A stretch of 45,233 bases of DNA from Escherichia phage vB_EcoM_SHAK7693. Position numbers and translations under genes: made by a program. The stretch lies in sequence record OR594180; one strand, written 5' to 3'. Every line of letters starts with the position of its first letter. Position 1 is the first letter of the stretch. The notes under the pieces were generated by a model. It had not been told where the DNA came from. It saw nothing but the letters and a program-made list of their open reading frames with translations, and searched no databases. Below are positions 3,285 to 43,101 of this stretch, piece after piece.

Positions 3285-3311
3285 TTTGCGTCTCCTGTTT
3301 AAGTTAACTGA

Positions 3312-3340
3312 ATAGTACCCTATTATATTGGTGTCTGCAA
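3312..3340 (-). promoter_or_regulatory. class-A promoter (TTGCAG-N17-TACTATTCA) for DnaN-like gene
   Basis: Conserved element shared with five other loci; correct spacing to ATG at 3284. Confidence 0.5.
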
Positions 3341-5134: not shown

Positions 5135-5164
5135 ATAGTACCCTATTATGTTGGTGTCTGTAAA
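5135..5164 (-). promoter_or_regulatory. class-A promoter (TTTACA-N18-TACTATTCA)
   Basis: Near-identical to element at 3312-3340. Confidence 0.5.
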
Positions 5165-14284: not shown

Positions 14285-14325
14285 GGTGTAGCTCCTGTTT
14301 GAGTTAACATTGTTGGTGTAAGTGA

Positions 14326-14354
14326 ATAGTATCCTATTATGTTGGGGTGCGCAA
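14326..14354 (-). promoter_or_regulatory. class-A promoter (TTGCGC-N17-TACTATTCA) for antisense island
   Basis: Conserved element upstream of island. Confidence 0.5.
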
Positions 14355-35300: not shown

Positions 35301-35611
35301 TGCAACTTATCGAGTTCTTCCAAATTCTTAATCGTGTGTTGCACATTCAGGTACTGAATCCAGGCAAAAAGCCATACGCTCACCGGAAAACTAACCGCGG
35401 CAGCCGTTCTGAAAACAATGTGGGCGGTACACGCTACAATTTCCTTTAACGTCATATCCAGAACATGGCGCAATTCTGCAACTTCCTCTAACGCTAGCTT
35501 GCAAACAGGCCACCATTGGTGGGCTACACAAGAAACACATGTCAGGTATGTCGGGCGGTATCCGGCCCTAACTGCTTTAAACGGGTTATTTATAAAATCG
35601 TAAATATTCAT
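35297..35611 (-). CDS. hypothetical protein (104 aa)
   Basis: ATGA-coupled to primase/helicase gene. Confidence 0.45.
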   Translation of the reverse strand: MNIYDFINNPFKAVRAGYRPTYLTCVSCVAHQWWPVCKLALEEVAELRHVLDMTLKEIVACTAHIVFRTAAAVSFPVSVWLFAWIQYLNVQHTIKNLEELDKLQ

Positions 35612-37875
35612 TCCAAATCCTCCTCTGTCACTGTCAGCATTTCATTCGGTTCGTATATTGTCTTCGGAATCTTGTTATCCGTTATTCGGGTGTTCAACCT
35701 GTAACGGCCAGGTATTATCTGATTGTTTTCGTCGGTCCCTGGCACAAGATACCCCGCCTCAACCATTTTCTTAATCTTCCCGCGTTCTATAGCTTCTTTG
35801 GAGTTAAACGCCTTCGCGTTGGGGTCAGACTGTGCGAGCTTATTTGCCGCGGCTACTGTGATACCCTCGTTGCCGTTGTAGGTTCCTTCTGCCAGTTCAA
35901 ACGCCGCGAGTATCGTGGACTCGGAACTGTTGACGGCGTTCTCTACGGTTTTACGTACGTTTTGTTTACCTTCGTTAGTTAACCTTTCTTCCCGCTCTTT
36001 CTCCTCGTCAGTCTTGAACGGCTCGAAACCCCACGGCATCAGCACAAGCGCCTTGTGCGGCTCAGGAAGGTCGAGGTTTATGATTGTGCCGTATTCCTCT
36101 GTGCTACCGAGGAACTCAACCGCACGGTACTCTTTCGGCGGTGGTGCTTCACGGAACTGTACTGACTCAAGCACCATTCCAACCGTTTTCTGTTGGGGGC
36201 CGTGCTTAAATTTAGAGTGGTATACGTTTATCTGACGGTCGGTAGCGCGCTCAATTGTCAGTTCTACGTCAACACCGGCATACAGCGCCCCACTGCCACG
36301 GGCTTTCTTTCCACCCTTCGGCGTATGGTGGACAGCACCCACCGCGGCTTTAGTCGCGTCGCGTACTTCTTTCAGGATGGCGATAACTTTACCCATGCCG
36401 ATTGCCGTTGATGAACTGTTCTCGTCGAACTTATCAATCGTCAGGGCCAGCGTCTGGTTAAGGGTGTCGAACGCGACCATTCCGATAGGTTCACCCCCAG
36501 CAGTTTCGCGCATTAACTTAATCAGGTTTTTCAGTTTTCCGACTTCGCCCATGTCGATAACATGTACATAATCTTTACCTTCCGCGCCGTATTTAGCGGC
36601 TAGAGCATCAATACGTGTTCGCGTAGCTGCACCACCTTCACCATCAATATAGAAATGGTGGCAACGCTGGGTATCAGCCCCGGCAAACCGGTATCCGGCG
36701 GCGCTCAGGTACATCATCCCCAGCGTATAGAACGATTTATACGTACCGGACTCACCGACAATATCCCATATGCAATCCGACGGCATATAACCTTCAACGA
36801 CGAAATCAGCCTTTACCGGTTCCGGTAGCTCGTCCTCCTCTGAGCCATCATCGTCTTCCAGGTCGTCCAGGCTGCATGAAACAGATTCACGCGCACCCCA
36901 TCCGATAGCCTCGGCGACTTCACTGAACGGCAGCCCGGTCGCATCACACGCATACTTCCACACCTCTTTCGGCGACATGCCTTCGGTTGCCGTAATGTCA
37001 GTGTCGTGGATCATGGTTACGTTCGGCGCTTCGTAGCCCTCGCGCGGGAAGCACAGCAGGAAGTCGTCCGGCCGCGGCGTAGGGTCGCTGTAATTTTCTG
37101 CATGTTCCGGCGTAGCTGGCATCTTAAGGCCGCGGAGCGTCATAACACCGCCGTACTCAAACGCCAGCGCCTCAAACGCATCAGTAAACGCGGTACGCAG
37201 TTCTTCCGGTATCTGGTAATCCGATGCGCTGCTAACGTCAACGGCGGGGATACCTTCCAGTAACTCGTCCGGGTCAATCAGGTCGTTGCGGCGCGACCAG
37301 ATAACCGTAGAGCCAACCGGCGGCAGGTACATCGGTTGTGACAGAGTAAACCCGCTGCGGTCAGCGCCCATGCCTTTGAAGAAGTGCTCAAGCAAGCCAT
37401 GACGAACACGGATGATGTCACCACCCTCAACAGGACGGGCCATCGGCATGACGACGCGAAAGCGTGGTGACTCATCGGTATGGGATGCCGTGGTGTAGAG
37501 GCACATAGCCAGGCGGCTGCGCTTAACCAGGCGCACAGCTTCCTGATACTCTTCCGGTGTTGCGCTGTCGAAGTCCAGATAGGCGAGCGACGATTTGCTT
37601 ACAGACGCGTCGCAGCGATAGAAGAAGCCTTTACGCGCTTGCTTAAAGTCACCGGTTTCCGGGTCTTTTACGGCGCTGTGCGTAGAGTCGCACGCGGCAG
37701 TGATATAGCCAGGCGCGGTCTTCGGGTTAATTCCGTCACGAACAACATCGAGTGGCTGGATTAACTCTTTCAGGTCGTCCAGTGTTGCCGTGTGGGTGGT
37801 TCTGACGTTTATATCCTTTTTCTCTGCCCGCGCGTTGCGACGAGACCACGAGTAGGATAAAATTACATCGGACAT
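35608..37875 (-). CDS. putative primase/helicase (RecA-like ATPase)
   Basis: Walker A GESGTYKS in central domain; 755 aa; large N-terminal domain. Confidence 0.55.
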   Translation of the reverse strand: MSDVILSYSWSRRNARAEKKDINVRTTHTATLDDLKELIQPLDVVRDGINPKTAPGYITAACDSTHSAVKDPETGDFKQARKGFFYRCDASVSKSSLAYLDFDSATPEEYQEAVRLVKRSRLAMCLYTTASHTDESPRFRVVMPMARPVEGGDIIRVRHGLLEHFFKGMGADRSGFTLSQPMYLPPVGSTVIWSRRNDLIDPDELLEGIPAVDVSSASDYQIPEELRTAFTDAFEALAFEYGGVMTLRGLKMPATPEHAENYSDPTPRPDDFLLCFPREGYEAPNVTMIHDTDITATEGMSPKEVWKYACDATGLPFSEVAEAIGWGARESVSCSLDDLEDDDGSEEDELPEPVKADFVVEGYMPSDCIWDIVGESGTYKSFYTLGMMYLSAAGYRFAGADTQRCHHFYIDGEGGAATRTRIDALAAKYGAEGKDYVHVIDMGEVGKLKNLIKLMRETAGGEPIGMVAFDTLNQTLALTIDKFDENSSSTAIGMGKVIAILKEVRDATKAAVGAVHHTPKGGKKARGSGALYAGVDVELTIERATDRQINVYHSKFKHGPQQKTVGMVLESVQFREAPPPKEYRAVEFLGSTEEYGTIINLDLPEPHKALVLMPWGFEPFKTDEEKEREERLTNEGKQNVRKTVENAVNSSESTILAAFELAEGTYNGNEGITVAAANKLAQSDPNAKAFNSKEAIERGKIKKMVEAGYLVPGTDENNQIIPGRYRLNTRITDNKIPKTIYEPNEMLTVTEEDLE

Positions 37876-37932: not shown

Positions 37933-38166
37933 TTATTCCAGGTCTTCTAAAGTGGCGGCCATTCCGCGAACTTCAGCAACAGCGCTATATTTCCCACCAA
38001 CATTTTTCACGACACCGGATTTAACCAGTACCCTCAACGACCCTTCAATAATGGCTGAACTATAGTACTTAAAATAACTACGGCGCAAGTCCATAACGCT
38101 GCACGACCCTTTTTTGCGGGTTAACGAAACGACCGCCGTAAATACGCGTGACTGGAACTCGGTCAT
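37933..38166 (-). CDS. hypothetical protein (77 aa)
   Basis: ORF between regulator and primase/helicase. Confidence 0.45.
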   Translation of the reverse strand: MTEFQSRVFTAVVSLTRKKGSCSVMDLRRSYFKYYSSAIIEGSLRVLVKSGVVKNVGGKYSAVAEVRGMAATLEDLE

Positions 38167-38333
38167 TTAACGTTCTCCTTAATCCACGCTTCCACTTTCT
38201 CTGGGTCAAACGTACCCGGCTGCCGGCGGCCCATAATGCGGATACAACAATCCGGGAACTTCCCACTCTTTAACCAGTTATTAAGCGTGCGGCGAGTAAC
38301 CCCAATACGCTCAGCTACCTCATTCTGTGTCAT
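38163..38333 (-). CDS. AlpA-like HTH DNA-binding protein
   Basis: MTQNEVAERIGVTRRTLNNW helix-turn-helix; RBS GAGGG. Confidence 0.55.
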   Translation of the reverse strand: MTQNEVAERIGVTRRTLNNWLKSGKFPDCCIRIMGRRQPGTFDPEKVEAWIKENVK

Positions 38334-38365
38334 TCTCAAACCCTCATTATCAGTCAACGAAACCA

Positions 38366-38394
38366 AGTATACATTGCGAATAATGGGAAATCAA
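38366..38394 (-). promoter_or_regulatory. sigma70-like promoter (TTGATT-N17-TATACT) for minus-strand early operon
   Basis: Hexamers and spacing read from sequence. Confidence 0.4.
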
Positions 38395-38764
38395 ACATAA
38401 TCGCACCTATTGACATTATGGAAATCTTCGTTTAAGGTGCTTCTATATCTTAGTTACTTTTATTCCTGTTCACCTTGTAAGAATGTTTAACCCGTGCGTC
38501 AAGCAAAGGGTTAAACACAGGCTTACTGAACATTAGAATTATAGTAACTTTCCTTCCTAAGTATCTCCAGTTGCCTTGGGCAAGCTCTATTCTCATCGGC
38601 AGCATATATCTTAAGTATCTGATTTTCTTAAAGTGCCGTAGATTCGCAACCGTAAAAATGTAACGATTATTGGGCAGGCCTTAAGCCTGCCCTTTAGTTA
38701 CCAAGTAATAAGAATAAAGGCACAACCTTCCCCGAAGAATCACAACGGCAACGTAACTATTCTC

Positions 38765-38793
38765 TTGCACACCCCAATATAATAGGATACTAT
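38765..38793 (+). promoter_or_regulatory. class-A promoter (TTGCAC-N17-TACTATTCA)
   Basis: Conserved element; extra AACTATTC half-site about 20 bp upstream. Confidence 0.5.
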
Positions 38794-38827
38794 TCACTTA
38801 TCGGAACGAGACAGAGGAGTTGGGGTT

Positions 38828-39097
38828 ATGTTTAAGAAGGGTCAGTTGGTGAAAACGAAACGCGGTGGGCAGTACGTAATAGTGTTGCAGGACGAGAACG
38901 AGTATGACGAGGATAATATAGTCGACGTATGGGGCCTGGTAAGAAAGAAACCCGGGTTCGCCTTACGCGATAATCTGGAATTAATTGGCAACAATTTTAA
39001 ACTCAAAGGGGTATTCGATGGCGGACTGAAAACCTCATTCACAACGGCATCGAATCATGATGCTTGTGCCGACGACTCTGAGGGAGGTTGCCGTTAA
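38828..39097 (+). CDS. hypothetical protein (89 aa)
   Basis: RBS GAGGAG; first gene after class-A promoter. Confidence 0.45.
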   Translation: MFKKGQLVKTKRGGQYVIVLQDENEYDEDNIVDVWGLVRKKPGFALRDNLELIGNNFKLKGVFDGGLKTSFTTASNHDACADDSEGGCR

Positions 39098-39651: not shown

Positions 39652-39692
39652 TGTTATATTGTAACAATAGTTTGGGATTTTACTGAGTGACT

Positions 39693-39730
39693 TACGCTGC
39701 TACACAGCAGCGTATCATTTTTCTCATTTT
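39693..39730 (+). terminator. rho-independent terminator
   Basis: TACGCTGCT-ACAC-AGCAGCGTA then T-rich run. Confidence 0.55.
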
Positions 39731-39807
39731 TGTTCTATTTCACCAAACGCAACAATCGAAGCGACTATTGCAGGAGATGCAACAATACAAACACCAATAA
39801 AATTTAC

Positions 39808-39836
39808 TTGCACACTGGGATAGAATAGGCTACTAT
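39808..39836 (+). promoter_or_regulatory. class-A promoter (TTGCAC-N17-TACTATTCA)
   Basis: Conserved element. Confidence 0.5.
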
Positions 39837-39969
39837 TCATTTACACGAACGAGGGGGGAGACGGAATATGATTCCTGGGCATTAGGCGAACTGGTAGATG
39901 CTTACGAAATAATGGGTAGCACTTCGGTGCGCGACGGTGACACTAAAGCGATAAAAATGGGGGTTGAGG

Positions 39970-43072: not shown

Positions 43073-43101
43073 TTGACTATTATCCTGGACCCTATTATAT
43101 T
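43073..43101 (+). promoter_or_regulatory. sigma70-like promoter (TTGACT-N17-TATATT)
   Basis: Near-consensus hexamers with 17-bp spacer. Confidence 0.5.

Follow-up and report, generated by a model that had tools for sequence, protein, structure and literature searches.

The 45,233-nucleotide stretch of Escherichia phage vB_EcoM_SHAK7693 analysed here (sequence record OR594180; hereafter the window) derives from a Kagunavirus-like siphophage of the subfamily Guernseyvirinae, and the current report concerns a single 494-bp intergenic gap within it (38334-38827), which extends from a leftward HTH_17 gene to the first rightward early open reading frame (ORF). A preliminary description made from the letters alone had presented this gap as the largest intergenic region of the window and as a non-coding hub between divergent early operons, equipped with promoters, a perfect inverted repeat and a terminator-like hairpin, and had nominated it as a candidate origin of replication or small RNA (sRNA) locus. 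Each feature named in that description could be located at the coordinates given for it. The hub itself is well supported by our analyses, as are its promoters and its inverted repeat, whereas the terminator and the sRNA withstood scrutiny only in part and the origin found no support. Close matches to the 1.4 kb surrounding the gap are the E. coli phages SZH-1, ULINTec2 and ZCEC5 (91–93%), while many Salmonella Jerseyviruses match the same 1.4 kb at greater distance. In the annotated genome of the close relative SZH-1, the homologous gap measures 504 bp and is likewise the largest, the runner-up being only 268 bp. The leftward operon begins with the HTH_17 gene (38163-38333, minus strand), which encodes a 56-aa protein resembling excisionase, AlpA and MerR (Pfam HTH_17, E = 2e-7) and is annotated in relatives as a 171-nt coding sequence (CDS). 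Next in the operon are a 77-aa gene and the gene of a 755-aa AAA_25 helicase-primase, the latter starting approximately 460 bp from the gap. On the other side, the first early ORF has its ribosome-binding site at 38813-38819 and its ATG at 38828. The gap contains ORFs of just 26, 30 and 51 codons, all of them broken by indels in relatives, and a conserved small protein could be ruled out, as no start codon is kept and the frames are disrupted by 1-nt and 8-nt indels between genera.

Three promoters can be recognized within the gap, two of which are of the host type and point outward. The leftward promoter PL (38394 to 38366, minus strand) is a σ70-type TTGATT-17-TATACT element with 9 of 12 matches in a promoter scan, and its sequence ATAATGGGAAATCAA is invariant across 12 aligned relatives. 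The rightward promoter PR (38410-38438, plus strand), read directly from the sequence, combines a TTGACA -35 element (38410-38415) with a TAAGGT -10 element 17 nt on (38433-38438), which places the predicted start near 38445. The PR block CACCTATTGACATT was invariant in the first 12 sequences aligned and showed single-base variants in two later ones, and in GenBank, this position is marked as a promoter for both phage Jersey and phage AG11. Even where the surrounding sequence is unrelated to that of the window, a TTGAC(A/T) promoter is kept at the position and in the orientation of PR. The third promoter, termed class A (38765-38794, plus strand), reads as TTGCAC-17-TACTAT with a conserved spacer AATATAATAGG, and the window contains three copies of it when up to 3 mismatches are allowed, with 0 expected by chance; the other two are found at 3311-3340 and 14325-14354, both on the minus strand. 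Partial copies are located at 5138-5152 (minus), 39808-39840 (plus) and 43087-43101 (minus). Because the conservation of the spacer far exceeds what σ70 would need, the pattern suggests that a phage factor also recognizes this promoter. The class-A promoter of the gap is the predicted driver of the rightward early ORFs. It is immediately preceded by a further conserved block, GAATCACAACGGCAACGTAACTATTCTC (38736-38764, plus strand), common to all Kagunavirus alleles examined. In general, the class-A sequence TTGCRCACCCCAAYATAATAGGRTACTATTCA, approximately 30 nt in length, precedes short operons on both strands.

The sequence between PR and the class-A promoter folds into two long hairpin domains. 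The first of these, HP1 (38452-38549, plus strand), begins approximately 7 nt past the PR start predicted from the -10 element and forms an unbranched hairpin of 98 nt with helices P1-P6, having a minimum free energy of -35.8 kcal/mol and a z score of -7.0; the score for the whole 261-nt stretch is -4.3. P1 consists of AGUUACU paired with AGUAACU. The perfect inverted repeat of the preliminary description (38485-38516) turned out to extend to 10 nt with 100% complementarity (38484-38493 and 38508-38517) and corresponds to P5, near the tip of HP1. Among relatives, the tips fall into five sequence classes that share one unbranched architecture. As these tips are not alignable without structure, the classes were compared fold by fold. 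The z scores of the entire HP1 in the other four classes are -4.1, -5.3, -6.6 and -6.5, and those of the tips alone range from -2.1 to -5.3. At the tip, sequence identity of either the window class or the Jersey class to the rest amounts to just 50–58%, and the three remaining Kagunavirus classes are 67–83% identical to each other. Between classes, P2 and P5 are completely replaced with their pairing kept, P3 is UGUUCA/UGAACA in Kagunavirus versus GUUUCA/UGAAAC in Jerseyvirus, the closing pair of P4 is compensated (G-C, A-U or U-A), and its middle pair may be A-U, G.U or G-C. In a MAFFT alignment of the lower stems, 99.5% of positions are paired, in comparison to 31–51% when the partner is slid. 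Among Jerseyviruses alone, 98.6% of HP1 cells pair, with pair 42/58 occurring as U-A, G.U or G-C. In every class, P1-P5 comprise approximately 30 bp interrupted by small internal loops, and B1, the second long domain, is similar; an RNase III site is expected to offer at least about 20 stacked base pairs.

Two further relationships of HP1 were considered and rejected. A kissing contact between the CAAG of the HP1 loop and the CUUG of HP2, the small hairpin that follows, was ruled out by eye, since HP2 varies to CCUG and CAUG while the HP1 loop remains constant. Similarly, the HP1 tip does not covary with a neighboring protein, as the tip classes share an identical HTH protein and a nearly identical 77-aa protein. 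As a separate observation, the 5' end of the PR transcript in Jerseyviruses (for example, approximately 1585-1610 of locus L001) carries an additional GUAAC just 5' of HP1, which the window does not have. It is possible that this GUAAC serves as an alternative partner for the GUUAC strand of P1, replacing the distal GUAAC.

The pairs themselves also reveal which strand folds. Tallied from the alignments, the consensus pairs include 81 G.U cells versus 2 A.C cells, and since a DNA palindrome or a minus-strand structure would tolerate both equally, such an excess argues that the folded molecule has the sequence of the plus strand, as PR would transcribe it. The reverse complement of the Jersey sequence adopts a different, rearranged shape. 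The same tally bears upon the view that the gap is purely regulatory DNA, composed of operators for the HTH protein, an integration host factor (IHF) site and promoter upstream elements, with the hairpins being mere by-products of palindromic sites. Certainly, the HTH gene adjoins the gap, and the surroundings of PL change together with it: the Kagunaviruses Sciku and Hrm2 encode a different, 183-nt HTH allele and have a PL region that differs from that of the window. The gap also contains an IHF consensus and five occurrences of GTAAC/GTTAC, as read from the sequence. However, palindromic binding sites should accumulate G.T and A.C equally, which is difficult to reconcile with counts of 81 and 2, while a 98-nt interrupted hairpin with compensated changes far exceeds the size of an operator. 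Moreover, the tip classes vary despite an identical HTH protein, and in one allele, a hairpin of the gap is capped by a cUUCGg tetraloop, which is a motif typical of RNA. On balance, we regard an explanation solely in terms of regulatory DNA as highly improbable.

HP1 is followed by the small hairpin HP2 (38571-38602, plus strand; 32 nt, UUGCC...GGCAG), recovered in the RNAalifold consensus; both its loop and its 3' strand (GCUCUAUUCUCAUCGGC) are conserved. Its changes are all one-sided (UG/CG, UA/UG and GU/AU) and each is compatible with G.U pairing on the plus strand, and support is weaker than for HP1. An AT-rich linker (38600-38671; GC 0.32) runs from the end of HP2 into the second long domain, and the gap as a whole is one of the most AT-rich segments of the window. 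This domain, B1 (38633-38723, plus strand; 91 nt), was obtained with RNAalifold from 16 unique sequences and is closed by the helices GUGCC/GGCAC, AUUC/GAAU and GUAAC/GUUAC, of which the outer ones are invariant and hence uninformative. A long-range pairing of GAUUC (38641-45) with GAAUC (38736-40), present in a single-sequence fold, was discarded, because the 3' partner occurs as GAACC or GGAUC or is deleted without compensation. The tip of B1 (38672-38692) is the GC-rich hairpin that had been described as terminator-like. It pairs GGGCAGGC with GCCUGCCC in an 8-bp stem containing 7 GC pairs beneath a 5-nt loop; its top pair is C-G or U-A, and one-sided changes in the tip give U.G or G.U pairs. 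The hairpin and its T-rich tail, TTTAGTTACC, are both present and were listed by the terminator scan, but the U-tract consists of just UUUAGUU (tail UUUAGUUA, 5 U in 8), which passes a lenient scan, and the hairpin is the tip of a larger domain rather than an isolated structure. Its tail doubles as the GUUAC strand of an outer B1 helix. At the same position, other alleles have the hairpins GGGUGGGC-UAAC-GCCCACCC, GGUGCC-UUCG-GCACC and GCACUUGCC-UUAC-GGCAAGCGC, and the tails in the B2 and B3 alleles and in module C of Jersey (ACUGCG, ACGUUCG and UUACCUGA, respectively) include no adjacent U-tract. Given the short U-tract, its absence from B2, B3 and C, and the 3' sequence that closes the domain, the 38672-38692 hairpin is probably a structural element first and foremost and at most a weak terminator, with a dedicated intrinsic terminator being unlikely. 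The conserved closing helices formed by the sequence 3' of the hairpin likewise suggest that some transcription reads through it.

These properties of B1 are also pertinent to the proposal of an sRNA. In its simplest form, a free-standing, trans-acting RNA of approximately 250 nt would be transcribed from PR, end at 38672-38692, and act upon host or phage mRNAs or proteins. Such an RNA would be free of ORFs, would be transcribed from a promoter of its own and would have a GC-rich stem whose UUUAGUU tail passes a terminator scan, and the highly conserved single-stranded UGCCGUAGAUUCGCAACCGUAAAAAUGUAACGAUUA just 5' of the hairpin is reminiscent of seed/Hfq modules. Five consecutive A-R-N triplets can be read at approximately 38702-38716 as well. 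There is even a precedent, as the PR' leader RNAs of lambdoid phages double as sRNAs (StxS, AgvB and AsxR). On the other hand, the U-tail is short and has no counterpart adjacent to the hairpins of B2, B3 and C, the helices that close the domain make use of nucleotides lying 3' of the hairpin, and B1 is missing entirely from some Jerseyviruses. The part of the sRNA proposal that stands is a folded plus-strand transcript from PR, for which there is strong comparative support; its hairpins are the tips of two domains of ~95 nt each and not isolated elements. We consider an independent sRNA terminating at this hairpin to be rather unlikely.

The variation among relatives reveals that the gap is assembled from modules. 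When used alone as a query, it matched 447 phage records, with Jerseyviruses being 72–80% identical over ~400 nt. Module A encompasses PL, PR and ~190 nt of non-coding sequence (38334 to ~38632). In the alignment of relatives, module B1 occupies ~38633-38762; Jersey (KF148055), ER15 and SB3 lack it, and the apparent deletion lies between two repeats, TGCCGTAGATTC and TGCCGAAAGATTC. Module C, found exclusively in Jerseyviruses, reproduces the layout of B1 with a TGCCG start, a GC hairpin and a AAGAATAAA(AA)GGCAC end, and it is likewise followed by the class-A promoter. Among 38 Kagunavirus-type loci, 6–7 alleles unrelated to each other can be distinguished on the A side, as compared with 3 for the B side, and they occur in many combinations. 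For example, the Sciku-type allele (12 loci) encodes a TTGACT-17-TAAGCT promoter, followed first by a small hairpin and then by a long, GC-rich one, the interior of which differs among three sub-variants with its pairing maintained. All alleles have in common (G)UCUAUU, approximately 25 nt, UAAGNNNCUGAU and UGCCGU. The alleles thus keep a common layout even where they share no sequence. Furthermore, all HP1 tip classes of Kagunavirus go with one and the same HTH protein, which, by our own count, is ~88% identical to that of Jerseyvirus, whereas the helicase-primase (35608-37875) is only 58% identical between the two genera. Due to this discrepancy, the block comprising the HTH gene, the promoters and the leader looks as though it has been exchanged between genera as a module. 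It is the pattern of variation inside the gap, and not its overall identity, that constitutes the evidence of function.

A feature that persists through much of this turnover is found in the linker, where the conserved core TAAGTATCTGAT contains an IHF consensus on the minus strand. In the window, this predicted site (38612-38624; AATCAGATACTTA = WATCARNNNNTTR) is a perfect motif match and the only one in the gap, the window as a whole having 7 matches versus 2.5 expected. In a set of 58 unique intergenic sequences that covers the two genera and every allele, a single perfect match is present in 43, always at the same junction and on the same strand; none of the 58 has a match elsewhere, and most of the remaining sequences are one base off. 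The free and degenerate positions of the site do vary (ATAC, TGAC, TGTC, TAAC, TAGC, TGGC and others). This is the pattern that would be expected of a maintained IHF site, with a constraint at the RNA level being the alternative.

A further reading of the gap is that of an origin of replication. Under this scenario, the DNA next to the helicase-primase operon would be opened through the combined effect of PR transcription, a bend introduced by IHF and the AT-rich linker, and the folded plus strand, either as RNA or as displaced DNA, would provide a primer or loading site, in analogy to the promoter-dependent origins of T7 and T4 and to RNA II of ColE1. The gap does lie at the point of divergence next to the replication genes, with the AAA_25 helicase-primase gene in close proximity, its linker is AT-rich, and alleles that are otherwise unrelated have the IHF consensus in common. 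Its position also coincides with the minimum of the cumulative GC skew (38–39 kb), which the preliminary description had suggested as a means to locate the origin. However, this minimum is equally the position where the genes switch strands, and it is therefore uninformative with respect to replication. The gap contains no iterons or multi-copy direct repeats, as we encountered only two-copy repeats of 8–15 nt, the largest family having 2 copies, each 12 nt long. The gap is also devoid of perfect DnaA boxes (TTATNCACA), and boxes with one mismatch occur in the window at the frequency of chance (29 versus 33.6 expected). The octamer TGTTCACC, which we take to be the iteron of the P4 α protein, is found once, inside HP1 (38467-38474), with 4 scattered copies in the window against 1.4 expected; P4-type iterons can be dismissed, and the lone copy is judged to be a chance match. 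In addition, the RNA is C-rich ((G-C)/(G+C) = -0.14), which disfavors a stable R-loop, and it would be odd for an origin to be swapped for unrelated sequence while the helicase remains unchanged. No test yielded a positive result for an origin, and only the AT-rich linker and the IHF-type site fit one. We therefore regard an origin at this site as doubtful.

Taken together, our preferred interpretation is that the gap encodes a conserved, folded, non-coding plus-strand transcript initiated at PR and containing two long hairpin domains, which most likely functions as a cis-acting leader; we would assign it a probability of about one half. Presumably, the gap operates as a modular hub of early control, in which the two host-type promoters would fire outward, PL into the HTH gene and the replication operon and PR rightward. 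The PR transcript would run through ~280–350 nt of non-coding RNA ahead of the first early ORF and fold such that HP1 and B1 are joined by HP2 and the AU-rich linker. By acting in cis, this leader could decide the fate of PR transcripts, which would be either ended or processed at B1 or continued into the early genes. The latter would also be served by their own class-A promoter and by a clear terminator after the first few ORFs, and the IHF-type site suggests that the DNA may be bent at the linker as well. A rationale for such control is provided by the downstream organization: a clear intrinsic terminator at 39693-39714, followed by TTTTT, lies 3' of the first few early ORFs, and together with the class-A-like promoter at 39808-40, it splits the rightward region into short units, which makes the control of read-through a plausible task for the PR leader.

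Several observations weigh against this interpretation. The -10 element of PR is weak, and with only 3 of 6 matches it kept this presumed promoter off the list of the consensus scan. The class-A promoter is located immediately downstream, and the early genes may consequently be independent of PR. Formal covariation in HP1 is modest, with 3 pairs changed on both sides, while there is hardly any variation in the lower HP1 stems or in the outer B1 helices, which leaves much of the pairing uninformative. An exchange between genera would also mean that 72–80% DNA identity is by itself no proof of constraint. Lastly, the conserved IHF-type site, if it is one, points to a function of the DNA in addition to that of the RNA.

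Among known systems, the lambdoid late leader (PR', qut, the 194-nt '6S' RNA and tR') offers an obvious parallel, since it likewise consists of a constitutive promoter, a structured non-coding transcript of ~200–300 nt and a stem-loop, followed by genes; a small DNA-binding protein is encoded nearby, and the leader could act in trans. Here, in contrast, no Q homolog was found (the neighbor being HTH_17), the stem-loop is devoid of a proper U-tract, a second strong promoter intervenes between leader and genes, and the phage is virulent. The put RNA of HK022, a protein-independent cis antiterminator of ~70 nt with two stem-loops, is similar in that a structured RNA begins a few nucleotides after the start of an early promoter (~7 nt for HP1), terminators lie downstream in the operon (here 39693-39714), and no dedicated RNA-binding protein is evident. 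The architecture of put is distinct from the 98-nt unbranched hairpin and second 91-nt domain encoded here. The early leader of T7, with its RNase III hairpins (R0.3 and others), shares the host-type early promoters and a non-coding leader of several hundred nucleotides with long, irregular hairpins and internal loops ahead of small early genes. However, the T7 sites are ~50–60 nt and located between genes, whereas the domains described here are ~95 nt, have variable tips, precede an internal promoter and would be candidate sites of cleavage. As for the promoter-dependent origins (the T7 primary origin, T4 oriF/oriG and ColE1 RNA II), they resemble the gap in having replication genes for neighbors and in combining AT-rich DNA with a promoter and a structured transcript, but the gap has no G-rich RNA segment, iterons or DnaA boxes, and close relatives have unrelated alleles in place of its sequence.

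Neither the window nor six loci with other alleles matched any Rfam 15 family at gathering thresholds, and with relaxed thresholds, the best scores for 38300-38900 were 15–18 bits versus thresholds of 45–79. No tRNA or tmRNA was found, and the gap exhibits no similarity to E. coli genomes. Our search of the literature on Guernseyvirinae, Jerseyvirinae and Kagunavirus found no paper describing the gap; a study of genome reduction in phage seszw deals with a Skatevirus instead. An RNA-seq study of a Kagunavirus reports gene counts only and classes the HTH gene as early, non-coding RNA being outside of its analysis (PMC12645636). Apparently, the RNA of the gap is an undescribed phage early leader or non-coding RNA and thus a candidate for a new RNA family. 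More speculatively, it is conceivable, if improbable, that the Guernseyvirinae encode an unrecognized class of immediate-early RNA, in which two hairpin domains of ~95 nt have their interiors swapped while the fold is kept and no dedicated protein is required. Such an RNA might be a put-like modifier that causes transcription to ignore early terminators, or a decoy or sensor target resembling double-stranded RNA and diversified by an arms race with RNA-directed host defenses, with the IHF site coupling it to DNA bending or the start of replication. If true, either a protein-free antiterminator or a counter-defense decoy would be a rare mechanism within an easily handled model. Few phages of E. 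coli and Salmonella are isolated as often as Kagunaviruses and Jerseyviruses, which are used in therapy, biocontrol and synthetic biology, and their genome records leave this ~500-bp gap blank or fill it with doubtful small ORFs. A folded transcript, an IHF-type site and swappable modules provide a concrete target for studies of the timing of early transcription, and possibly of replication, and they advise caution before the gap is deleted or employed as an insertion site.

The surroundings of the gap vary among relatives as well. The first early ORF (38828-39097) and its homologs keep their ends (MFKKGQLVK...LIGNNFKFKG) around a highly variable middle, with lengths of 60–148 aa in relatives, and some loci have an unrelated ORF (MNKATASVV...) in its place. 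In ZCEC5 (1342-1494 of locus L003), as well as in loci L271 and L272, an additional ORF of ~50 codons (MVTLTEEQLKELLIEAWFNGH...) lies between the HTH gene and PL; the window does not have it. The rightward early region of the window contains a second non-coding gap (39652-39869), which consists of the 39693-39714 terminator (TACGCTGCT-ACAC-AGCAGCGTA, then TCATTTTT) followed by the class-A-like promoter. Some Jerseyviruses have a gap of ~1 kb at the position of the one studied here, namely Ent1 (L009) and VSe103 (L008; both ~775-1775) and ER15 (L010), and in Ent1 and VSe103 the same terminator sequence is found within it. After the class-A promoter, the sequence of these ~1-kb gaps begins with ATGTTTAA[AG][AG]GGGGTCA, which resembles the start of the first early ORF of the window. 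No CDS is annotated there, and the gaps may contain a copy of this ORF that has either decayed or escaped annotation.

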